Below are positions 3,601-56,920 of a DNA stretch of 64,000 nt, in pieces. The notes beneath the pieces were generated by a model. It had not been told where the DNA came from and did not search any database. It saw nothing but the letters and a program-made list of their open reading frames with translations. A program made the position numbers and the translations under genes. How positions within the stretch are numbered: position 1 is the first letter of the stretch; every line of letters begins with the position of its first letter. The stretch is from Candidatus Aenigmatarchaeota archaeon (GTDB taxonomy: Archaea > Aenigmatarchaeota > Aenigmatarchaeia > CG10238-14 > SCSR01): positions 14,076 to 78,075 of the forward strand of contig JACOWB010000008.1 in the NCBI GenBank assembly GCA_016177025.1. Direction: 5' to 3'.

Positions 3601-3750
3601 TTAACTAACGTATCCCTTTACTAATAATCGTCCCAACTCCGTCAATCGAACCTTTATCCTCCCTCGTTTTTCTTCAGTTTCAACCAGTCCCATCGTTTTC
3701 AATCCTTCCGACTTCATGTTTCCAACCGGAGCTATCATTGTGTATTTCAT
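3601..3750 (-). pseudogene. remnant (49 codons) of a paralog of the CARF-like/wHTH regulator at 18332-18982; N-terminal 10 aa fused to C-terminal ~37 aa
   Basis: Translation MKYTMIAPVGNMKSEGLKTMGLVETEEKRGRIKVRLTELGRLLVKGYVS matches the first 10 and last ~40 residues of the 216-aa protein. The adjacent 5' region is also conserved. Confidence 0.5.
3667..3707. repeat. 41-nt exact repeat shared with 18416-18456 (3' end of regulator gene copies)
   Basis: TTTTTCTTCAGTTTCAACCAGTCCCATCGTTTTCAATCCTT is identical at both loci; flanks are ~70-85% identical. Confidence 0.7.
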
Positions 3751-3835
3751 GATAAATTAAATGTTTCCTTATCTTTTAAATCTAATGTTTAATTGTTAAA
3801 TGCCACTTATATAGTGGCAAATTGTCTTCTTAATA
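3751..3835 (-). promoter_or_regulatory. conserved 5' region (TATA-like TTAAAAG plus AAGGA SD-like) shared with the promoter of the 18332-18982 gene
   Basis: About 85% identity over ~50 nt with 18983-19035. Contains TTAAAAGATAAGGA on the coding strand about 12-25 nt upstream of the ATG. Confidence 0.35.
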
Positions 3836-3839
3836 AAAG

Positions 3840-4574
3840 GTGAAAACGATTAAAGTAAGTTTCGATGTCTCCAAATCAACGGTTGCTTTGCTTGTGTTCG
3901 CACTAGGCATAGGATACTTATTAGGAAATGTATTCGGAGTGTCCAGTTTTACAGGAAAGACTACTGAAATTACAGCTATAACTCAGACACAGCCTACGCA
4001 ACAGCAACAACCGTCAAAAGTTCAAGTATCGATTGATGATGATCCTTCAATGGGCGAAAAGGATGCCAAAGTTATAGTTATAGAATTTTCTGATTTCCAA
4101 TGTCCGTTCTGTAGAAGATCCTACACAGATACAATATCTCAACTGAAGAAGGATTATATTGATACAGGGAAGGTGCTTTTTGTATACAGAGATTTCCCAT
4201 TAAGCTCCATACATCCTAGCGCATCATCTGCTGCCATGGCTGCCAACTGTGCGAATGAACAAGGCAAGTTCTGGGAAATGCACAACAAAATATTTGATGA
4301 ACAAAACAAGCAAGGGCAGGGAACAGTACAATTTTCTAGTGATGACTTGAAGAAATGGGCCGATGAGATTGGTTTAGACACTGATAAATTCAATTCTTGC
4401 TTAGACTCACAAAAATACAAAGATGAAGTTGATAAAGACTTTCAAGACGGTGTAACAGCTGGCGTCACAGGGACTCCGACATTCTATATAGGGAATCCAA
4501 AAGACGGATATACAGAAATCGTAGGTGCTCAACCGTATTCTGTTATCAGGCAAGTGATAGATTCAATGCTTTAA
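3840..4574 (+). CDS. DsbA-like thiol:disulfide oxidoreductase (thioredoxin fold), N-terminal signal anchor
   Basis: FQCPFCRR CxxC active site in DsbA-like context; hydrophobic N-terminal segment; GTG start. Confidence 0.7.
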   Translation: MKTIKVSFDVSKSTVALLVFALGIGYLLGNVFGVSSFTGKTTEITAITQTQPTQQQQPSKVQVSIDDDPSMGEKDAKVIVIEFSDFQCPFCRRSYTDTISQLKKDYIDTGKVLFVYRDFPLSSIHPSASSAAMAANCANEQGKFWEMHNKIFDEQNKQGQGTVQFSSDDLKKWADEIGLDTDKFNSCLDSQKYKDEVDKDFQDGVTAGVTGTPTFYIGNPKDGYTEIVGAQPYSVIRQVIDSML

Positions 4575-5143
4575 TGAACATTATGGGAAAAAGGAATGTA
4601 TTTGTACATAACTTGAAAGAAATAAAAGAGTCTGTAGTGCTCGTCTTTAGCAAACAGGTTTATATATTTTCCGCGATTTCAATTTCAGCTTTTCTTTTTT
4701 TCTTATTTATTTTCCTTACAAACATGCCACTCTTTCTCCAAGCATGGTCGGTGGGCGGATTTGCACTTTTTCCTAAAGTTTCGTTGAATATTATCAATAC
4801 TATCTTGTCTGTTTCGGGTAACTTGGCTTTAAGCCTGATGGTTGCTGTAGCTCTAGCCGGGGGAATTAACATTTCCATGATTGCTTTCAAGTTTCTGGCA
4901 ACAAGAAACAGAGAAATTAATTTGTTCAGCATAGGCGGCTTAATCGGGAGTGCATTCGGTGCAGGCTGTCCTGCCTGTTCAACCTCCTTACTTTCGATAT
5001 TAGGTGTTACGGGCGGTTTGTCAATTCTTCCCTTCAAAGGTATTGAGTTCACATTCAGCGGTTTGATAATTCTTCTTATTTCTTTATATTTTATAGCCAA
5101 GTCAATAAGTAATTGCGAAGAGTGCAAGATTAGAGCTAATTAG
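4574..5143 (+). CDS. polytopic membrane protein with intramembrane GAGCPAC motif and C-terminal CEEC; candidate redox partner of DsbA or metal permease
   Basis: About 5 predicted TM helices. GSAFGAGCPACSTSLLSILG lies in a hydrophobic segment; NCEECK is at the C-terminus. N-terminal domain of the 7581-9002 protein shares the same motif arrangement. Confidence 0.45.
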   Translation: MNIMGKRNVFVHNLKEIKESVVLVFSKQVYIFSAISISAFLFFLFIFLTNMPLFLQAWSVGGFALFPKVSLNIINTILSVSGNLALSLMVAVALAGGINISMIAFKFLATRNREINLFSIGGLIGSAFGAGCPACSTSLLSILGVTGGLSILPFKGIEFTFSGLIILLISLYFIAKSISNCEECKIRAN

Positions 5144-5196
5144 TTTGATTTAACTTAATCAAAAGATTTAAATAGTATATATGCCATAGATATCAT

Positions 5197-5508
5197 ATGA
5201 TAAAAACACCATATAAATTATTCTTCGGTACATTAAGCAATGAGATAAGATTAAAAATATTGCATGCATTAGCGGAAAAACCTAAAAACGTCACACAACT
5301 TACTAATGAACTCGGGTTTGACCAAACAACTGTGTCAAAGAACTTAAAGCGTTTGGCTACATGCCAATTTATTACAAACAAGAAAATAGGAAAACACAGC
5401 ATCTACTCTTTAAATAAGAAGACCATCTTGCCTTTGCTCAAGCTTATAGATAGACATGTTGATAAGTATTGTAAAAACTGCGAGTTGCTCCTGAATGAAA
5501 GAATATGA
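5197..5508 (+). CDS. ArsR/SmtB-family HTH transcriptional regulator (archaeal MerR-like position)
   Basis: ArsR HTH signature LKILHALAEKPKNVTQLTNELGFDQTTVSKNLKRL. Immediately upstream of and overlapping the merA-like gene. Confidence 0.75.
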   Translation: MIKTPYKLFFGTLSNEIRLKILHALAEKPKNVTQLTNELGFDQTTVSKNLKRLATCQFITNKKIGKHSIYSLNKKTILPLLKLIDRHVDKYCKNCELLLNERI

Positions 5509-6782
5509 TTTAATAATCTTGGGTCAAGGGTCAGCCGCATTTGCTGCAGCAATAAAAGCAAATGATTTAGGAATAAAAACAGCTATGGTTGGTGGCAATG
5601 CCACTTCCGGTGCGTTAATAGGTGGTACTTGTGTTAATGTTGGTTGCATGCCAAGCAAGAATCTAATCACAGTGGGGACCCTCTATTACCATGCGGTGAA
5701 TAATTCTTTCGAAGGGATTAAATATGGAAAAGGAAGACTCAATTTCAAGAAAGTTATCGAACAAAAGGATAGGCTTGTAAAGAAGTTTAGAAAAGAAAAA
5801 TATGCTGATGTTGTGAAAGGTTTGGAGAACGTGACTTATTTTGAAGGCAAAGGTAAGTTCATTTCTAAGGATGAAGTCGAAGTTGAAGGTAAAACACTAA
5901 AAGGAAAAAAGTTCTTGGTTGCTGTCGGTGCAATATCTAACATAATTCCTGTTCAAGGAATAGAAAAAATAGAGTACCTAACAAATGAAGAAGCTCTGAG
6001 TTTGAAGGAATTACCTAAATCAATGTGTGTCATTGGTGGCAGGGCTTTAGGACTGGAATTTGCACAAATGTATGCACACTTTGGAACTAAGGTAACAGTT
6101 TTGCAAAGAAGCGATAGAATTCTTCCAGAGGGGGAACCTGAAATTTCTGAAGCATTGAGAAAATACTTGGAAGAAGAAGGTATAATTATTTACACAGGGA
6201 CAGAGATTAACAGTGTAGATAAGAAAGGGAAAAATAAAACTGTTAATTTCACTGTTGGCAATGAAACAAAAGAAGCTGAATTTGAGCAAATTCTATTTGC
6301 AACTGGCAGAAAACCAAATACAGAAAATCTGGGATTAGAGAAAGTAGACGTGAAAACTGATGAAAAGGGTTTCATTATAGTGAATGATGAAATGCAAACA
6401 TCTGCACCAAGTATTTGGGCTGCCGGAGACGTCATTGGGGAACCTATGCTGGAAACTATTGCAGCGAAAGAAGGTGCTGTAGCAGTGGATAATGCTTTTA
6501 CGGAAAGCAAAAGGAAGATTAATTTTAATGAAGTTCCTTCTGCTGTATTTACCTATCCTGATAGTTGCAGACAATGATACAAAACAGATTGTGGGCGTTC
6601 ATATAGTAGCACCCCACGCAGCCGATCTTATACATGAAGGAACGCTAGCCGTTAAATTCAAGATGAAAATAGATGACATAATTGACACAGTCCATGTTTT
6701 TCCAACATTATCTGAAGCGATTAAATTAGCTGCACAGTCATTCTATAAGGATGTTAGCAGGCTGAGCTGTTGTACCGAGTGA
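5495..6782 (+). pseudogene. merA: mercuric reductase (MerA)-like pyridine nucleotide-disulfide oxidoreductase, disrupted by an internal deletion and a frameshift
   Basis: N-terminal FAD motif and redox-active GGTCVNVGCMPSK (CxxxxC). The dimerisation domain ([15 protein letters not shown]...[15 protein letters not shown]) continues in a second frame from ~6580. The C-terminus [11 protein letters not shown] carries the MerA-type vicinal Cys pair. About 45 aa of the interface domain is missing between TYPD and KQIVGV. Confidence 0.6.
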
Positions 6783-6894
6783 CATTTTTGGTTATAGTAG
6801 GTGATTATCTGTTTTTATCGTCGGTATTCGTAGAAGAATTTGCATCTTTACTCTTTTCCCAATAATTTAAATCTTAATTAACAATAGGATTGTT

Positions 6895-7566
6895 ATGGAA
6901 AAAGTTTCTTGTGATGTCTGCGGTAGAAAGTTCAAGACTAGTGAAGCCTTGACCCAACATAAAAATGATGCGCATAAACAGACTAGTGACGAAAAACAAC
7001 AAAGAAAAAAGAAGATATCAACAGGTAAGATACTTGCTTTTTTGATACCATCCTTGATTGTTTTAGGCATTGGATACGGGATTTATTGGGCTTTGTCAAC
7101 AGAAGGTGTGGGAACTATTGGGTCAACGCATATCCACGCTGACTTTGCTGTTTTTCTGGATAGTGAAGAAATTACCCCGCTTCCAGAGCAGTATTTTGTA
7201 GCTAGTCCGTATGTGCATGTCGAGACTGGAGCTGGAGCTGGTACTGTAATTCATATACATGCCACTGACGTACCTCTGAAGATGTTTTTCAACAGTCTCG
7301 GTATGAAGTTTAACTCAGAGTGTTTCGAAGCTGGTCAGGACAACAAATACTGTAATTACGGTGATACTACTCTGAAAATGTTTGTAAAGCATGCTAATAG
7401 TACATGGGAACAGAATTTCGAATATGAAAAATACATCTCCCAAGATTTGGATAAAATATTGATTACATACGGGAGCGACACGGACGAGGAGATTCAGCTA
7501 CAACAGAATAATGTAACAGATTTCTCAAAAGACAACTCTGGCAGAAGCATGGCTCTAAGAAGATAA
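6895..7566 (+). CDS. membrane protein: N-terminal C2H2/zinc-ribbon-like Cys2His2 element, one TM helix, extracytoplasmic His-rich domain (paralog family A)
   Basis: CDVCGRKFKTSEALTQHKNDAH; TM ILAFLIPSLIVLGIGYGIYWAL; then HIHADF...IHIHATD...KMFFNSLG...C...C, homologous to 10042-10551 and 14344-15015. Confidence 0.55.
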   Translation: MEKVSCDVCGRKFKTSEALTQHKNDAHKQTSDEKQQRKKKISTGKILAFLIPSLIVLGIGYGIYWALSTEGVGTIGSTHIHADFAVFLDSEEITPLPEQYFVASPYVHVETGAGAGTVIHIHATDVPLKMFFNSLGMKFNSECFEAGQDNKYCNYGDTTLKMFVKHANSTWEQNFEYEKYISQDLDKILITYGSDTDEEIQLQQNNVTDFSKDNSGRSMALRR

Positions 7567-7580
7567 ATTTAATAGCTCTA

Positions 7581-9002
7581 ATGGAGAAAGAATATATAAT
7601 GAAACGGAAATCCGGCATTCGAGAAATGGTATCGAACACATTTACCGTTGTAGCACGCAAAAATCTTGCGTTCTTTCTGATTTCATTAATAGCATTCACC
7701 CTTCTATATCTGTTCTTTTACGGTGTTTTCACAATCCCTGTCCTTGAGATAGGATTCTTCAAGGATGTCAAGCCTGGTGCATTTGATTACTTCTACATTT
7801 TCTCTTCGTCTTTATTGTCGGCATTGATAGTGACGTTGACAAAATATTCAATCACGAACAAAGTTCTTACCAGAGGAACATCCATTTTTGGCATATCTGC
7901 AGGTGTATTCGGTGCAATATGCCCTGTATGCTTGGGTGTGAATTTCCTAGTATTTGGTAGTTTTGTAACGCTTCCTCTGGTTTCATTGATTCCTTATTTA
8001 TTCTGGATACAGCTTGCTGGTCTCACGTTATTGACATTGGGCTTAGGGGCGACTATAAAAAATTCTTATGATAATATTTGCCTGGCATGCACAACTGAGA
8101 TTAAAGAAAAGAAAATCAAGACAAGTCTATTGGGTAGTACACTAAATCCTTTCCAAAGTTTTGTATTTTTTGCGTTATTGCTGTTGGCTATTTTTGCCTT
8201 GGGGTATCAGATTCTACCGCTGGTGTTGGGAGACGTATTTACTAGCACGGGTGCAGCAGTCGCTACAAATGGTCATGATAGTGATTTAGATTTAGAAACA
8301 GTAGTTTCGCAGGTTCTTCCTGAAGAAGGATTTACAATAGATGCTATATGGGAGGACTCTGTAAGCAAGATGGTGAAAGCTGGTACATTAGATATTGATA
8401 AATTGAACGACATATTGACAAAGCGGTATGGTCAACCATTGACAGAAGAACAGAAGAAACTATTGACATCGGATTATTCTAATGAAAAACTTACAATAAA
8501 CTCAAAGAATGCGGTTTTCATGATGTATGTTCTTTGGGCTCTAGCGAAAGACAATGACAACCAGATTCTGCATGACAGTCCGTTTGCACAGTATTTTGAA
8601 GATTATGATATAGGAGTTGGTAAGGCTGGTTATGGTGATACTAAATTAATTGACTTGACTCCCGAGCAGCAGGAGATTGCAAAATACGCTGCACTTAATT
8701 CCTACAGACCATGCTGCGGCAATCCTACAGGTCATCCCGATTGTTCGCACGGATTTTCTGCATTGGGGTTGATTGAATTGATGGCAGAACAAGGATATAC
8801 CAAAGAACAGATATTCGATGCTTTCGTGAAATTCAACTCATACTGGTTCCCGTCCACGTATATCCAAGATGCGCTATACTTTAAATTGGCAGAAAACAAA
8901 GATTGGAGTGATGTTGACAGAGAACTTGTTGCTGGAAAGCAGTATTCGTCCTTATCTGGCTCTTATGCGGTTAAGCAATACTTGCAAAATCTAGGAGTAT
9001 AG
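7581..9002 (+). CDS. large membrane protein: N-terminal domain with intramembrane GAICPVCLG and loop CLAC motifs; C-terminal soluble Cys-containing domain of unknown function
   Basis: About 6 TM helices in the first ~200 aa, paralogous to the 4574-5143 protein. C-terminal domain contains PCCGNPTGHPDCSHG. Confidence 0.5.
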   Translation: MEKEYIMKRKSGIREMVSNTFTVVARKNLAFFLISLIAFTLLYLFFYGVFTIPVLEIGFFKDVKPGAFDYFYIFSSSLLSALIVTLTKYSITNKVLTRGTSIFGISAGVFGAICPVCLGVNFLVFGSFVTLPLVSLIPYLFWIQLAGLTLLTLGLGATIKNSYDNICLACTTEIKEKKIKTSLLGSTLNPFQSFVFFALLLLAIFALGYQILPLVLGDVFTSTGAAVATNGHDSDLDLETVVSQVLPEEGFTIDAIWEDSVSKMVKAGTLDIDKLNDILTKRYGQPLTEEQKKLLTSDYSNEKLTINSKNAVFMMYVLWALAKDNDNQILHDSPFAQYFEDYDIGVGKAGYGDTKLIDLTPEQQEIAKYAALNSYRPCCGNPTGHPDCSHGFSALGLIELMAEQGYTKEQIFDAFVKFNSYWFPSTYIQDALYFKLAENKDWSDVDRELVAGKQYSSLSGSYAVKQYLQNLGV

Positions 9003-9012
9003 GAGGTTAAAA

Positions 9013-9204
9013 ATGAATACAAATGTCGTGTTGCTTGCGCTGATAGGCATACTGGTGTTGATGGCTGGAATACAGGCTTTCCAATTGACTACACTGTCAC
9101 AGGCTATCTCCGGCGGTACATTAATGTCCTCATCAGTGTCAGGTGCGGGATCTGGCGTACTATCGCAACTGTCGCAAGCTTCACAAGTCGGCGGATGCGG
9201 ATAG
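9013..9204 (+). CDS. small secreted/membrane-anchored Ser/Gly-rich peptide ending in GGCG
   Basis: 63 aa; hydrophobic N-terminus then S/G-rich tail with C-terminal ...VGGCG; AGGAGG RBS 8 nt upstream. Confidence 0.4.
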   Translation: MNTNVVLLALIGILVLMAGIQAFQLTTLSQAISGGTLMSSSVSGAGSGVLSQLSQASQVGGCG

Positions 9205-9232
9205 GTTTTCTTCTTTAATTGGAGATGAATAA

Positions 9233-10039
9233 TTGAGAAAACAAAAAAGGTCAGATAACAGATTATTCTGGAATATGTTTTTCGGACTTGTGGTAGTTCT
9301 GATAGTTCTGTACGGAGTGAACATTTTTATAACTGGCAATATAATCGGTCCTTTAAAAGATTCTGCTGAAAAGGAAAGACCGGCGAACTTGCATCTGGCT
9401 TTAATCACGAATGATTGTGACAACTGTTACGACATGAACAATGCTGCATCATTCATAAAAAGACAGACTACTGTGAAAGTAATTACGGAAAAAAATCTTA
9501 CATATGCCGATAAAGCGGCGCAAGAACTTGTATCTGCGAACAACATCAAAACGCTACCGGCTTTGGTGATTACAGGCGAGACTCTTCAAGATAATGTAAT
9601 GCCATTGTGGAATAGCATGGGTGCAGAATTTGTGGGCAATGTTGTCATTGTAAACGGCATACCACCTTATTACAGTTTAGACGCACAAAAAATCGTGGGA
9701 CTTGTACAAGTAACCAAATTGACAGATAACTCCTGTGCAGAATGCTACGATGTTGAAAACCATATGGCGATATTGCCGAGATTTGGCATCTACATAGACA
9801 AGTCAATACCTTATGATGTGTCCTCAGCCAACGGCAAGACTTTGGTACAGAAGTACAACATAACTAAAGTCCCTACGATAGTCCTTTCATCGGACGCTTC
9901 TGCATACACTTCGCTAAATAATGTATGGGGAGATGTGGGTACTGTTGAAAGCGACGGGCAGTATGTTTTCAGAGCTGTAGAACAGATGGGAACCTATAAA
10001 GATCTTGCTCGGAATAATGTAATCAATGCGACCAGATAA
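9233..10039 (+). CDS. membrane-anchored protein with two thioredoxin-like CxxC repeats
   Basis: N-terminal TM, then two ~110-aa repeats, each with a CxxC (NDCDNCYD and NSCAECYD) followed by a cis-Pro-like VPT/LPAL pattern typical of the Trx fold. Confidence 0.5.
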   Translation: MRKQKRSDNRLFWNMFFGLVVVLIVLYGVNIFITGNIIGPLKDSAEKERPANLHLALITNDCDNCYDMNNAASFIKRQTTVKVITEKNLTYADKAAQELVSANNIKTLPALVITGETLQDNVMPLWNSMGAEFVGNVVIVNGIPPYYSLDAQKIVGLVQVTKLTDNSCAECYDVENHMAILPRFGIYIDKSIPYDVSSANGKTLVQKYNITKVPTIVLSSDASAYTSLNNVWGDVGTVESDGQYVFRAVEQMGTYKDLARNNVINATR

Positions 10040-10041
10040 AA

Positions 10042-10551
10042 ATGAAAAAGTCAAAAAAAAATCAAAATCTAATTTTAGTTTTTATTATAGTCATTGCTAC
10101 TATCGGTTTGGGACTAGGTTTGTATTCTTTGCTTGCTGTTTCGAAAACTACCGGTTATGTCAGTTTACCTAATAAGCCGATACATTGGCATCCTCACCTT
10201 GAAATAATTATAAAGGGTGAAAAAGTTGTCATACCTACCAACATAGGAATTGGTACAAGTTATTCGGGTAGCCCATTCTACGATTCGATGATGGACATGA
10301 CTAACATGCATACTCATGATGACAGCGGCACATTACACTGGGAAGTTATGATGCATGCACCAACACGTGAAGACATGTACCTCGGTAATTTCTTCCAAGT
10401 CTGGGGAAAGACTTTTAATGAGAATTGCATTTTTGAATTTTGCAACGGTCCTGAAGGAAGTATGAAAGTGTCTGTAAATGGAAAAGAAAATAATGATTTT
10501 GAGAGTTATATTATCAGAGATGGAGATGAAATAGTAATAGAATTTAAGTGA
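10042..10551 (+). CDS. membrane-anchored extracytoplasmic His-rich domain protein (paralog family A)
   Basis: N-terminal TM; IHWHPHLEI...HTHDDSGTLHWE...LGNFFQVWG...C...C...SVNG; homologous to 6895-7566 and 14344-15015. Confidence 0.55.
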   Translation: MKKSKKNQNLILVFIIVIATIGLGLGLYSLLAVSKTTGYVSLPNKPIHWHPHLEIIIKGEKVVIPTNIGIGTSYSGSPFYDSMMDMTNMHTHDDSGTLHWEVMMHAPTREDMYLGNFFQVWGKTFNENCIFEFCNGPEGSMKVSVNGKENNDFESYIIRDGDEIVIEFK

Positions 10552-10556
10552 AGATA

Positions 10557-10694
10557 ATGGTAATAGACCCTGTTTGCAAGATGGAAATCCCCGAAGGAAA
10601 CATCAAAGCCCAAAATAAAGGAAAGACATACTATTTCTGCAGCAGCAACTGCCAAGCTGAATTCATGATATATCCGAATAAGTTTGTAAAATAA
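10557..10694 (+). CDS. YHS/TRASH-domain small metallochaperone (CopM-like), 45 aa; not in ORF track
   Basis: MVIDPVCKMEI...KTYYFCSSNCQAEF is a YHS/TRASH Cys pattern. It is closely similar to the N-terminal domain of the CopA immediately downstream, in the CopM-CopA arrangement known from Sulfolobus. Confidence 0.6.
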   Translation: MVIDPVCKMEIPEGNIKAQNKGKTYYFCSSNCQAEFMIYPNKFVK

Positions 10695-10703
10695 TATAAT
10701 TAT

Positions 10704-12776
10704 ATGACTGTAGATCCTGTCTGCGGAATGTATGTCGATGAAAAGAAAGCTATCTTCAAGAAGGATATCGACAGTAAGACTATTTATTTCTGTAGTGAAA
10801 ATTGCCTGAAAACTTATGAGTCCCGTGAAAAGGAATTCAAAAAATTAAGATTACTTGTTATCCTAAGCGGATTGATAGCTGTTCCTGTGGTTGCTTTGTC
10901 ATTCTTTTACAAACTCCCGTACAATAATTGGATTCTGCTTTTGCTCGCTACGCCAGTGCAGTTTGTTGCGGGCTGGAGGTTTTACAAAGGCATGTGGGAC
11001 GGGCTGAAAGCTAGAAGCGCGAATATGGACACGCTAATCGCAACCGGAACTTCTGCCGCATGGTTTTATAGTGTGTCGGTGGTTTTCTTCCCAGCAATCT
11101 TTACAGGAGAAACTTATTTTGACGCTTCTGTAATCATCATCGCACTTGTATTATTCGGAAAGCTTTTGGAAGAAATTGCCAAAGGGAAGGCATCCGAATC
11201 CATCAAAAAATTGATGGGATTGCAACCGAAAACTGCACGGATAATTAAAAACGGAAAGGAGGTTGAGATTCCTATCGAAAATGTTCAAATTAATGACATA
11301 ATTGTTGTCAGACCAGGAGAAAAGTTCCCTGTTGATGGCATTGTCGTTGAAGGGGAGTCCTCTGTTGATGAAAGCATGATTACTGGTGAATCGATGCCGG
11401 TGACAAAAAGGAAAGGTGATGAAGTCATTGGTGCGACTATAAATAAATCCGGATTGCTGAGATTCAAAGCCACTAAGGTCGGCAAGGATACTGTCCTGCA
11501 GCAGATAATTAAAGTTGTTCAGGAAGCGCAAACTGGCAAAGCACCTATACAGAGACTGGCTGACAAAGTTGCGTCTATCTTCACCCCGAGTGTTATCGCT
11601 GTTGCCATCTTATCGGGAATATTATGGTTCTTTCTGGGGCAGAATTTCATTTTTGCATTGACGATATTCATTACGGTTCTGATAATAGCATGCCCGTGTG
11701 CATTGGGAATAGCCACGCCAACCGCAATTCTGGTAGGTACAGGATTGGGAGCTCAGAATGGAATTTTAATCAAGGGTGGCGAAGCATTGGAAATCGCCAA
11801 GAAAATAAACACAATAATTTTTGACAAGACTGGAACACTGACGAAAGGCGAACCTTCTGTTACTGATGTTGTAAGACTAGGAAATGTGAAAGAGAACGAA
11901 GTTTTGAGATTGGCTGCCATTGCCGAAGTAGGCTCTGAACATCCTATCGGGGAAGCTATCGTTAAGAAAGCCATGGAAAGTAATCTGACACTGCCGAATG
12001 TAAAATCTTACCAGACTGTTTCTGGTAAAGGAATTAAAGTCACATATCTGAATAAAAGGATTCTGGTGGGCAACAGGACTTTCATGAAAGAGAATGGAAT
12101 TGTTATCACAGAGCTTGAAGGTGAGATACAAAAACTGGAAGATGAGGGGAAAACGACTGTGATTGTTGCTTATGGTGATAAAGTTATCGGATTGATTGGA
12201 GTTGCAGATACTCTTAAAGAGTTTTCGAAGGATGCTGTTCAACAGCTGAAGAAAATGGGGATTGGTGTCTGGATGATTACAGGGGATAATGAGAGAACTG
12301 CAAATTCTATTGCAAGTGACGTTGGCATTGATTATGTTATGGCGGGCGTCTTGCCTGAGGATAAAGCGAAGAAGGTGAAAGAACTGCAGGATAAAGGAAT
12401 GATAGTCTCCGCTGTTGGTGACGGAATTAATGATGCTCCCATGCTGGCACAGGCTGATTTGGGAATTGCGATAGGTTCTGGAACAGATGTTGCACTTGAG
12501 ACAGGTAAGATAGTTCTGATTAAGAATGATTTGAGAGATGTTGTTACTTCGATTGACTTGAGCAAGTATACTGTCAACAAGATAAAACAGAATCTTTTTT
12601 GGGCATTCTTTTACAATACTGTCGGGATACCGTTAGCTGCAGGAATATTATATCCATTCTTCGGATTGTTGCTTTCGCCGATAATTGCTGGTGCAGCCAT
12701 GGCATTTAGCTCATTTTCTGTAGTTGGAAATTCACTTTTAATGAGAATGTACAGACCAAGAATACAAACGAAATAA
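10704..12776 (+). CDS. copA: copper-translocating P1B-type ATPase with N-terminal YHS/TRASH metal-binding domain
   Basis: DPVCGMYVD...YFCSENC N-domain, TGES, CPC ([11 protein letters not shown]), [15 protein letters not shown] motifs; 8 TM topology. Confidence 0.9.
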
Positions 12777-17514: not shown

Positions 17515-18348
17515 TTATTTTGACGGTAATTGCAAAAAATAACCCAAAATTATAAGAATGATACCAGCAACTGTCAAATAGCTTTCCTTTCTGAAATTAC
17601 TTCGTACCATTTCATTTAGATATTCATCTTTTAAAAACATGTGATCTGCGCCTTCAATGATTTTTAAATCCTTAGGTTCATTCGCATTCTCAAATAAAGC
17701 TTGTGCATTCTTTACTGGAACTATGTCATCATTGTCACCTTGGATTATTCTGACGGGTCGTTTAACATTCTTTATTATCTTGGTACCGTCGTATTCTTGA
17801 AGGTCTTCTATGAAAGAGTGATGTAATTTTATGTGCCCTCTTTTGTAGCTTTGATAATCTAGCGAACCTTCTTGTAGCCACTTCGTGATTGTATTTTCAT
17901 CAAACAAGTTCTGCCATTCTCTTTTAGCTGGTGCTGATATAGGGACTATTGCTTTAATTCTTTTGTCAGTTGTCGATGCAACTACAGCAGTAAGCCCACC
18001 AAGTGAATGGCCGGTTAATCCGATTTTATTTCTATCAACAAATTTCAAATCTTCTACAAAGTTCATAGCAGATATCGTATCGTTGACTTGATGGCTCAAC
18101 ATCATATCTTCGCATTTCCCTTCACTCTCACCGATGCAGTCAGAAAAATCAAATCTTAGAGCAACAAATCCATTTTCTACAAATGTCTTACCCAATTCAT
18201 GTAAAGGTTTGAACTCTTTGAATCCTGTGAACCCGTGACAAATCACAACCGCGGGTAGTTTACCGTCTGTATCAGGCTTATCTAAAATACCAGCAAGATT
18301 CAACCCTCTACTATTTTGAAAGGATACTTTTTCACTTGTCATCGGCAT
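17515..18348 (-). CDS. alpha/beta-fold hydrolase (dienelactone hydrolase/esterase-like)
   Basis: Nucleophile elbow GHSLGG; catalytic Asp/His candidates downstream (DNDDIV, GADHMF). Confidence 0.7.
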   Translation of the reverse strand: MPMTSEKVSFQNSRGLNLAGILDKPDTDGKLPAVVICHGFTGFKEFKPLHELGKTFVENGFVALRFDFSDCIGESEGKCEDMMLSHQVNDTISAMNFVEDLKFVDRNKIGLTGHSLGGLTAVVASTTDKRIKAIVPISAPAKREWQNLFDENTITKWLQEGSLDYQSYKRGHIKLHHSFIEDLQEYDGTKIIKNVKRPVRIIQGDNDDIVPVKNAQALFENANEPKDLKIIEGADHMFLKDEYLNEMVRSNFRKESYLTVAGIILIILGYFLQLPSK

Positions 18349-18982
18349 CGCTGGTCACATAACCTTTCACGAGCAACCTTCCCAATTCAGTCAACCTTAC
18401 TTTTATTCTTCCTCTTTTTTCTTCAGTTTCAACCAGTCCCATCGTTTTCAATCCTTCTGATTTTACATTTCCGTTTATGTGGTAAACTAACAGAGGCAGG
18501 CTCATCTTGACTCTCTTGCTCAGGTCTTCTAAAGAAGAACAGCAGTCGATCTCTTTTGATAAAGTTTTAAGTACCGACATCTTCTTATCTGACAAGAGTT
18601 TGTAATATGAAAATTTTAGGATGGGAAACATCATCACTTTATCATCCATTACATCTATAGCCTTCAATCCATTGACAAATGCTGCGCTAGTTGCCGCACA
18701 CATCATGTTCCTATCAGCAGCTGCTACATTTACTATAACTTTTTCTTTGTTAATTGCAGCAATATTAGAAATCACCTTGAAAGTTTCCTCCCACAGGTTT
18801 CCTTCTATTGTTACCGTGTCAACATCTATTCGAAATTTTGAGAAATCTTTTTTTATTTTTTCTACTTGATTTGATTTATCTTCCGTTGTTATGGCAACAA
18901 GCCTTTCTATTGGAAATTCATTAATTGAAGCGTATAGTGCATCTGGATTGTCGCCTATCGGAGCTATCATTGTGTATTTCAT
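18332..18982 (-). CDS. putative transcription regulator: N-terminal Rossmann-like (CARF-like) domain plus C-terminal winged helix (Csa3-like architecture)
   Basis: N-terminus MKYTMIAPIGDNPD then alternating beta/alpha pattern; C-terminus LKTMGLVETEEKRGRIKVRLTELGRLL is wHTH-like. A remnant paralog is at 3601-3750. Confidence 0.4.
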   Translation of the reverse strand: MKYTMIAPIGDNPDALYASINEFPIERLVAITTEDKSNQVEKIKKDFSKFRIDVDTVTIEGNLWEETFKVISNIAAINKEKVIVNVAAADRNMMCAATSAAFVNGLKAIDVMDDKVMMFPILKFSYYKLLSDKKMSVLKTLSKEIDCCSSLEDLSKRVKMSLPLLVYHINGNVKSEGLKTMGLVETEEKRGRIKVRLTELGRLLVKGYVTSDADDK

Positions 18983-49808: not shown

Positions 49809-50752
49809 TCACTGAATTGCCAGAATAGCCGTATTGCACATGCTGGATGTGCACAACCTTAGGGTGTGTGTTCCTCTTGATAATTGGTTGTATATCTTCA
49901 TTGTTGCTATTTCGCCGGGATTTATTTGCGAGCCTATGTCGTATTCAGCTTTTATTTCTTGTGCTGACAAGGCACGATTATAAATTTTAACTTCATCTAT
50001 CATACCGCTGAAGAATGGTGCTTGCCGATTGCCGCCTATATTAAGTGGGCGTGCTTCATTGGCTATATCACCGGAGGAAAACCAACTTGCTGAGGCCTTT
50101 TGTACGCCACCGACGTAAACCTTGAAGTAGTTGCCTAACTTGGAACCTGTGCAAACGACATGATACCATTGGCCTGTGTTATACTGTGTAGGATCTGTGA
50201 CATATACATAGATTCCTGGAGAGGAGCTTGCAAACTCTCCCATGTATCACTATTTGTTTTTATCCATGTCTCAATGGTGATTTCCTGTGTTATGCCCAAA
50301 GAAGCAGAATGCGGTACTTGTATGTATCCTCCGTTTGATGTGAATCCTGCACCATTTCCGAAATAGCCTGAAGCTGGACTGCCATAGTCAGCTCCGCCTG
50401 TACATGATTTTCCGTTATTATTTTTATCGGAAGAATCTTTTATCGAGTTTGTTGTGCAATCGTTTGTCCAAGAGCTTTCGTCCATCTTCCAATAACCTAC
50501 AAGCGAGGAATCCTGCTTGGATACACGATAAACAGCGTCGTTACCATCTATTTTAACAGACGAAAAGGCATCTATCGGTTCCGTCCCATCATTTCTTATA
50601 ATTACAGTATCGTTTACAGAGTCTACTAATGAAAATGTTGTTGATGTCTTGCCGGTGAATAACCCAGAGACATATAAGTAAGCCGTCCCTGCCAAAGCAA
50701 TCGTGATCGTCAGCATCAGAATAGACGCTATAATAGTAGAAATCGCCTTCAT
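49809..50752 (-). CDS. archaeal pilin-like protein with LamG/concanavalin-A-like lectin domain; two overlapping frames (apparent frameshift near 50225)
   Basis: N-terminus MKAISTIIASILMLTITIALAG; ...ITIETWIKTNSDTW then +1 frame continues ...QWYHVVCTGSKLGNYFKVYVGG...IDEVKIYNRALSAQEI (LamG). C-terminus shares GTHTLRLCTSSMCNTA with 27617-28621. Confidence 0.5.
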
Positions 50753-56692: not shown

Positions 56693-56711
56693 ATCAAATA
56701 TTGTTCTTGTT

Positions 56712-56797
56712 GGGGACTTGGTATAACTTGGTTAGAATTCGACCTTGGGGTTAAGGACAGATTGGTCGCGATCCGAGTTCAAATCTCGGGGTCCCCA
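56712..56797 (+). tRNA. tRNA-Pro (anticodon GGG) with ~12-nt intron at canonical 37/38 position
   Basis: Acceptor GGGGACT/GGTCCCC, T-arm CCGAG-TTCAAAT-CTCGG, anticodon stem CGACC/GGTCG with loop TTGGGG+T; D-arm irregular. Confidence 0.55.
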
Positions 56798-56832
56798 TTA
56801 ATTTTAAAAGCCAAACTGTGTATCATTCTTAG

Positions 56833-56920
56833 GGGGTTGTGGTCTAACTTGGTATGACACCAGCCTTGGGAAGTTACTCAAGAACGCTGGAGGTTCAGGG
56901 TTCAAATCCCTGCGACCCCA
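56833..56920 (+). tRNA. tRNA-Pro (anticodon UGG) with ~14-nt intron after position 37
   Basis: Acceptor GGGGTTG/CGACCCC, T-arm CAGGG-TTCAAAT-CCCTG, anticodon stem CCAGC/GCTGG, loop CTTGGG+intron. Confidence 0.6.

Follow-up and report, generated by a model that had tools for sequence, protein, structure and literature searches.

A probable, very young merA pseudogene with a single 128-bp deletion in a Candidatus Aenigmatarchaeota archaeon

The stretch of DNA analysed here (hereafter the window; 64,000 nucleotides of contig JACOWB010000008.1, assembly GCA_016177025.1, from an uncultured Candidatus Aenigmatarchaeota archaeon) carries a merA-like gene whose coding sequence is divided between two reading frames. 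The features of this locus are collected in Table 1. Directly upstream of merA, on the same strand, lies a winged-helix ArsR/SmtB gene, the stop of which overlaps the merA start by 14 nt. An ArsR-type regulator next to merA was already part of the first-pass annotation, and the HTH_5 match of this ORF supports it. The identical ArsR protein is encoded on 12 public contigs, and the same pairing with merA is found in two relatives, namely contig L002 and the Aenigmarchaeota MAG GCA_016187385.1 (L019). The region in front of arsR contains a candidate palindrome, TTGATT-N6-AATCAA, at 5145-5162 and a TATA-like box, TTTAAATA, at 5167-5174, which is 23 nt before the arsR ATG. These elements would act as operator and promoter of arsR-merA; in L002 this place is taken by another palindrome, AACCTT-N10-AAGGTT.

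Table 1. Coordinates of merA and its surroundings in the window.
Feature	Position	Strand	Basis or remark
Remnant copy of the 216-aa gene at 18332-18982 (rearrangement scar)	3601..3802	-	483-bp in-frame internal deletion
DsbA-like thioredoxin-fold protein (244 aa) and unannotated 189-aa membrane protein with GCPAC	3840..5143	+	
Putative operator and promoter of arsR-merA	5145..5174	+	Read from sequence
ArsR/SmtB-type metalloregulator, 103 aa, C-terminal CKNC, intact	5197..5508	+	Pfam HTH_5, 6e-10; NCBIfam NF033788, 63.3 bits vs. 55
merA locus	5495-6782	+	1288 nt, split over two frames by internal deletion
merA 5' segment	5495..6561	+	Gene nt 1-1067, codons 1-355
Deletion junction CCTGA/TAGTTGCAGAC	6561..6562	+	Alignment to L001; 1 nt strict microhomology
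Out-of-frame tail D356 then SCRQ, and premature TGA stop	6562..6577	+	Sequence
merA 3' segment	6562..6782	+	Codons 399-471 and stop, now in the +1 frame
Stand-alone YHS/TRASH metal-binding protein, 45 aa, intact	10557..10694	+	Pfam YHS, 42 bits vs. cut-off 30.3
P1B-type heavy-metal ATPase with N-terminal YHS, intact	10704..12776	+	Pfam E1-E2_ATPase, Hydrolase, YHS

The genes on the upstream side, encoding the DsbA-like protein and the 189-aa membrane protein, travel with arsR-merA both in the window strain and in the public contig L001 described below. The 189-aa multi-pass protein (4574-5143, +) has a GAGCPAC motif and a C-terminal CEEC but no family match; a role as thiol or Hg(II) carrier is conceivable. 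Downstream of merA is a five-gene block (6895-10551, +; L002 5998-9668; L019 4053-7666), most members of which have no Pfam, NCBIfam or PDB match. It encodes a 223-aa C2H2-finger protein with a TM segment, a 473-aa membrane protein with CPVC and CCGNPTGHPDCSHG motifs, a 63-aa protein, a 268-aa double CxxC thioredoxin-like protein and a 169-aa protein, and may represent an extracytoplasmic thiol/disulfide or metal-handling system. The motif region of the 189-aa protein resembles GAICPVC of the 473-aa protein (BLASTP E = 0.012 over 17 residues), and neither membrane protein has a match in PDB sequence searches. The block is followed by the genes of the YHS protein and the heavy-metal ATPase. The Cys motif of TRASH/YHS proteins, C-x(19-22)-C-x3-C, is found both in the 45-aa protein and at the N-terminus of the ATPase, where Pfam YHS (PF04945) scores 32.2 bits against a cut-off of 30.3; the ATPase is 83% identical to its L019 orthologue.

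Two other regions of the window contain unusual genes. At 49809-50752 (-) there is probably a frameshifted gene with an archaeal type IV pilin N-terminus and a Laminin_G_3 domain, which is divided into two overlapping ORFs (205 and 144 aa) with the break near ...TWIKTNSDTWE / GEFASSSPGIYVYV...; exact look-up of the 205-aa product returned no other record. In addition, two adjacent 88-nt tRNA-like genes lie at 56711-56798 and 56833-56920 (+), with anticodons left undetermined by ARAGORN. An Rfam tRNA match was obtained for 56833-56920 only (57 bits), and none for 56711-56798. The pair may be intron-containing or otherwise atypical archaeal tRNAs.

By translation, the first merA ORF (5495-6577, +; 360 aa) starts with MKEYDLIILGQGSAAFAAA and contains GGTCVNVGCMPSK. 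Its first 355 codons encode the FAD and NADPH domains (Pfam Pyr_redox_2 and Pyr_redox), the redox-active pair within GGTCVNVGC and the conserved EKY tyrosine; the redox-active CxxxxC and FAD motif noticed earlier in the N-terminal part are thus in place. The reading frame then ends at a premature stop, at 6575-6577. The second ORF (6492-6782, +) is in another frame and opens with 23 unrelated residues before it turns into MerA sequence, i.e. the second half of the dimerisation domain, the FPTLSE motif and the C-terminal LSCCTE. The last of these is coded at 6762-6779, in the +1 frame relative to the merA start, from which none of this segment is translated. The first-pass annotation had placed the dimerisation domain and the MerA tail in a different frame, and so they are, although only half of the domain is left: the sole Pfam match of the second ORF covers positions 53-109 of the 110-position Pyr_redox_dim model (PF02852). 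The window allele therefore lacks the complete interface domain of a class I pyridine nucleotide-disulfide oxidoreductase.

An intact 471-codon merA is carried by L001, a 3632-bp public contig (Logan assembly, run SRR12113429) that is 99.9% identical to window 3679-7179. Its product, P0001 (471 aa), is the closest database protein and is identical to both window pieces at every aligned residue. The gene measures 1416 nt in L001 vs. 1288 nt in the window, and the two copies differ only by three synonymous SNPs (5677, 5854 and 6671) and one 128-bp gap. The window is missing L001 2884-3011, namely gene nt 1068-1195 (codon 356 position 3 to codon 399 position 1), and with it the 43 residues 356-398, EVASVGLTDKEAIRNGIKCNCGVLPLELVPKAHVIGDTRGLVK. 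The earlier proposal of an internal deletion of about 45 residues with a frameshift is hence borne out. Judged by these sequences, merA appears to be present in both the intact and the deleted state among near-identical strains. The lesion would be very recent, because the three synonymous SNPs alone separate the window merA from the intact allele outside the deletion.

That the gene belongs to the mercuric reductases is best seen from the intact allele, which scores 567.3 bits on the NCBIfam MerA equivalog TIGR02053 (cut-off 454.45), and the merA-like identity given at first pass is upheld. The best solved relatives of the window merA are 5x1y (E = 5e-100) and 4ywo (E = 4e-96), both of them MerA, which align to it as two blocks with about 38-45 residues of the chain skipped. 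The redox-active pair, C46/C51 in GGTCVNVGCMPSK, is invariant in 40 homologues (alignment A1) and aligned with GGTCVNIGCVPSK of 5x1y; in the numbering of the Bacillus RC607 enzyme, the redox-active CxxxxC of MerA is C207/C212 (PMC8261052). Similarly, the Hg(II)-site tyrosine is Y103, which shows no variation in A1; its context RKEKYADV aligns with RNQKYMDL of 5x1y, and it is equated with Y264 (RC607 numbering) by motif only. At RC607 position 605, which is Tyr in bacterial and Phe in archaeal enzymes, the Tyr of the bacterial APYLT aligns with the Thr of FPTLS; the Phe of FPTLS is two residues upstream of the aligned Thr, as in Metallosphaera sedula 4ywo (MFPT), and the motif is out of frame here. 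The C-terminal vicinal Cys pair (C628/C629, RC607 numbering), which as LSCCTE is a signature of MerA (PMC8261052), is absent from the translated window protein.

Were the enzyme instead another class I flavoprotein disulfide reductase, such as dihydrolipoamide dehydrogenase, the lesion would be uninformative on mercury. Several PDB matches are indeed dihydrolipoyl dehydrogenases, and the intact allele reaches 407 bits on the lipoamide dehydrogenase model, just below its cut-off of 409. However, its score on the MerA equivalog is far higher, the top PDB matches are the MerA structures 5x1y and 4ywo, the gene encodes the vicinal pair LSCCTE, and in relatives it stands between the ArsR regulator and a YHS protein with a heavy-metal ATPase. 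We consider such an identity very improbable and take the gene to be a merA.

The sequence across the junction of the deletion allele is CCTATCCTGATAGTTGCAGACAAT, and the corresponding sequences of the intact allele at the two breakpoints are CCTGAAGTTGCAAGTG and GTGAAAATAGTTGCAGAC. In the intact allele, the left breakpoint reads CCTGA-AGTTGCA-AGTG... and the right one ...GTGAAAAT-AGTTGCA-GAC, so that AGTTGCA forms a 7-bp direct repeat with copies 129 bp apart. The junction is one base off this repeat: a purely repeat-mediated event would delete 129 bp in frame, whereas here 128 bp were lost and one T was kept, with strict microhomology of 1 nt. A 7-mer repeat lies no more than 1 nt from both breakpoints in only 0.13% of all possible 60-299-bp deletions in merA, and the observed breakpoints are therefore non-random. 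They look like the outcome of slippage or microhomology-mediated joining, in the cell or, less likely, in the test tube. The 128-bp deletion would have arisen beside the two AGTTGCA copies, the likely cause being replication slippage or microhomology-mediated end joining with retention of one extra T.

Two other explanations of the breakpoints were rejected. Promotion of the deletion by a hairpin is not favoured by the DNA fold of L001 2870-3030, which is nothing unusual (z = -0.26). A deletion hotspot shared with L018, a relative in which merA is truncated (see below), does not fit either, as the L018 stub begins at L001 2929, inside the segment lost here. Neither the deleted segment nor a second merA was found elsewhere within the window by blastn and tblastn.

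The deletion could also be an artefact, with the genome really intact: the junction might stem from a chimeric read, from template switching in library PCR or in whole-genome amplification, or from an error in consensus or assembly. L001, the sole public contig that spans the site, is intact, and the junction is absent from every other contig or protein record searched. Exact look-up found no record of the junction products (360, 96 and 84 aa), a left-flank 23-mer did not retrieve the junction from genome and metagenome contigs, nor did a junction 24-mer from metagenome contigs, and a protein search with a junction-spanning chimeric query was equally negative. The absence of the junction is weak evidence, because the searched sets appear to omit products cut at contig ends. 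The repeat signature does not discriminate, since in vitro polymerase template switching also uses short repeats, and the lack of further degenerative change is equally expected of an artefact. On the other side, no assembler uses a k-mer nearly as short as a 7-bp repeat, so that, inferring from the de Bruijn principle, a graph mis-join is not expected, and a rare chimeric read should not beat the true path in a consensus. A generally error-prone assembly is rejected for 3679-10589, where 14 independent Logan contigs from two sample series are 99.8-100% identical to the window, with 0 indels in the remaining sequence.

Further evidence comes from the ends of public contigs. The population carries SNPs at 5677, 5854, 5905, 5934, 6671 and 7231, and its strains are represented in no fewer than 14 public runs (series SRR121133xx-134xx and SRR43434xx); a search of the literature with the sample accessions yielded no account of their environment. 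Since several Logan contigs stop exactly one base before SNP sites (e.g. L013 at 5676 and L009 at 5904), contig ends can be used as markers of polymorphism. L006 (SRR12113433), which matches the window at 100% identity and shares its SNP haplotype, terminates at 6559, 2 nt short of the junction, as would a contig at a branch of the graph; a simple two-allele branch would be expected to end at 6561, and this end is only suggestive of polymorphism at the site. Weighing both sides, we regard an artefact as unlikely and infer that the deletion is probably real, i.e. that cells, and not just reads, contain the junction.

The deleted segment is a conserved part of the enzyme. Twelve of its residues are invariant in the alignment of 40 homologues, namely E356, A358, G361, T363, C374, C376, V384, K386, T393, R394, G395 and K398, and these include the CxC pair C374/C376. 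In an AlphaFold (AF2) model built on the intact protein (mean pLDDT 78), the segment comprises strand 356-361, helix 364-369, strand 374-380, helix 387-390 and the start of strand 396-402, so that the dimerisation domain loses one to two helices and its interface sheet two to three strands. It had been noted from the sequence that other family members carry this segment, and among the best 120 homologues every full-length match (463-510 aa) retains it. As 128 is not divisible by three, only five wrong residues are added before translation stops, and 116 of the 471 native residues, including the C-terminal Cys-Cys, are lost in total. The two window ORFs score 390.7 (first) and 105.6 bits (second) on TIGR02053, both below the cut-off. 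By these measures the window gene appears to be of MerA descent with a product that would not be a MerA.

Class I flavoprotein disulfide reductases are homodimers in which the C-terminal region of the partner completes each active site. The predicted product of the window allele, 355 native residues followed by DSCRQ, would keep the FAD and NADPH domains and the redox-active Cys pair and would have neither a usable dimerisation domain nor the C-terminal Cys-Cys that hands Hg(II) to the active site of the partner subunit. Since the homodimer needs the partner's C-terminal region, here absent, the truncated product would fail as an obligate homodimeric Hg(II) reductase, and the window merA is most simply read as a null allele with an inactive product. 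A functional MerA is recognized by the C-terminal Cys pair together with the redox-active pair and the tyrosine (PMC8261052).

It is conceivable that the gene still functions, either through a programmed +1 frameshift (at 6562-6577) that yields a 428-aa MerA or with the two ORFs forming a split enzyme. Both parts of merA are otherwise perfectly conserved, an in-frame fusion made in silico scores 484 bits on TIGR02053, above the cut-off, and ATGs at 6492 or 6528 could start the second ORF. Nevertheless, restoring the frame still leaves 43 residues missing, among them 12 invariant positions and two to three interface-sheet strands, and none of the full-length homologues among the best 120 lacks the segment. 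Moreover, an ATG-initiated second ORF opens with 23 out-of-frame residues, and the recency of the lesion, with its three synonymous SNPs, explains the perfect conservation. We judge continued function to be extremely improbable. The interpretation that we prefer, and hold with good though not full confidence, is that window 5495-6782 is a very young merA pseudogene that arose by one 128-bp deletion.

The first-pass annotation had taken the gene for a remnant of a decaying mer operon. This stands insofar as merA is disrupted within an archaeal-type ArsR/TRASH context, but the lesion is single and fresh and does not reflect long decay. It is not an old decaying remnant, because protein identity outside the deletion is 100% and the regulator, the YHS protein and the ATPase are intact. 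In the proposed course of events all three would have stayed intact through the loss of merA, while near-identical strains of the same sample series keep merA itself.

A longer history is suggested by the relatives. In both L019 and L002 the gene order is Lhr-Tmk-NUDIX, the five-gene block and arsR-merA-YHS, with the block directly upstream of arsR; L019 continues into the ATPase after YHS, and the L002 contig ends first. The Lhr-type helicase of L002 (1-3721) is listed with an intein (PF14890 Intein_splicing), and Pfam finds no intein domain in the visible part of the window orthologue (38-2479). In the window, the five-gene block runs directly into the YHS gene with a 5-bp spacer, and arsR-merA lies upstream of the block. 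The site that arsR-merA occupies in L019 (7666-9424) and L002 (9668-11424), where its neighbours are the 164/168-aa gene and the gene of the 45-aa YHS protein, corresponds to window 10551-10557, where there is no trace of the pair, which is found 5 kb upstream. The arsR-merA module thus seems to have been either relocated, or lost and re-acquired. Proteins with TRASH motifs had been reported at first pass as nearby; they are present, as the 45-aa YHS protein and the ATPase N-terminus, but 3.8 kb downstream, a distance that arises because the arsR-merA pair has apparently moved. Housekeeping proteins are 63-82% identical to those of these relatives and the flanking proteins 70-82%, whereas the N-terminal part of merA is 91% identical to that of L002, a hint that merA has been exchanged between lineages.

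The left edge of the DsbA-189aa-arsR-merA block is marked by the remnant at 3601-3802 (-). Its 49-aa ORF, in which residues 1-11 are joined to residues 171-210 of a 216-aa protein, is 80-88% identical in nucleotides to the HFX_2341_N-like gene that encodes this protein (18332-18982, -). Four public contigs start at 3679 because 30 bp there are shared with 18428-18457. In L018 (JGI 3300021357, Ga0213870_1004725), a relative with about 90% nucleotide identity, only the last ~101 codons of merA are kept: the 3' ~307 bp (IKCNCG... to stop) lie inside the contig, at 379-685, with unrelated sequence upstream. Here merA would have decayed independently. Downstream of the stub is a 31-aa ORF that contains CGICGFGY and has no significant Pfam match. 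As far as these gene orders indicate, merA and the arsR-merA pair appear to be mobile, repeatedly lost and decaying in this Aenigmarchaeota-like group.

The lesion itself resembles those of known young pseudogenes. Young prokaryotic pseudogenes arise by short-repeat-associated deletions, in keeping with the deletional bias of bacterial and archaeal genomes. The window merA shares with them the single internal deletion by short direct repeats, the frameshift and premature stop in an otherwise undegraded gene, the intact allele in sister strains and the presence of other deletion remnants nearby (3601-3802; the L018 stub). It differs only in that its junction is one base off a perfect repeat, and otherwise nothing is unusual.

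The encoded enzyme belongs to the same family as M. sedula MerA (4YWO). Both are without the N-terminal HMA (NmerA) domain and have a CVNVGC active site, the HVFPT of the window merA resembles HMFPT of 4ywo, and the SRLSCC tail is identical. Unlike this archaeal core-type MerA, the window copy is broken, and its host is a DPANN-type archaeon rather than a crenarchaeote. In Sulfolobus, archaeal mer operons are known to include both an ArsR-type repressor and a TRASH protein (PMC3466566). As in the operon of Sulfolobus solfataricus, merA shares a transcript with an ArsR-family regulator, and the cluster includes a TRASH/YHS protein. The order is merR-merH-merA-merI in Sulfolobus, whereas it is arsR-merA-YHS-ATPase in relatives of the window organism; in the window, arsR-merA is 3.8 kb from the YHS gene and beside the DsbA-like and 189-aa membrane protein genes, unlike in the Sulfolobus operon. 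Bacterial MerA (Tn501, 1ZK7; Lysinibacillus, 5X1Y) has the same fold, redox-active pair and C-terminal vicinal pair. In contrast to it, the window gene has no NmerA metallochaperone domain, its regulator is of the ArsR rather than the MerR type, its FPTLS has Thr at the place of the APYLT Tyr, and the allele appears to be null.

Taken together, the locus is an ordinary young deletion-frameshift pseudogene of an archaeal-type merA and not a new system, and none of its consequences is mechanistically new. It should be annotated as a merA pseudogene, not as two genes and not as a mercury-resistance determinant, and the genome should receive no credit for Hg(II) reduction. More speculatively, the deletion could be a real, segregating loss-of-function variant in a natural DPANN population, where loss is tolerated or favoured in a Black-Queen manner; we think this rather doubtful. 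If true, mercury volatilisation by neighbours or hosts would be a shared benefit that allows or favours the loss of merA, and this would explain why merA has repeatedly moved, been truncated (as in L018) and been deleted in the lineage. The locus documents what appears to be a mobile, decaying arsR-merA module in the Aenigmarchaeota-like group. Near-identical strains set apart by one clean knockout in a detoxification gene could reveal if a host-dependent archaeon can do without merA.
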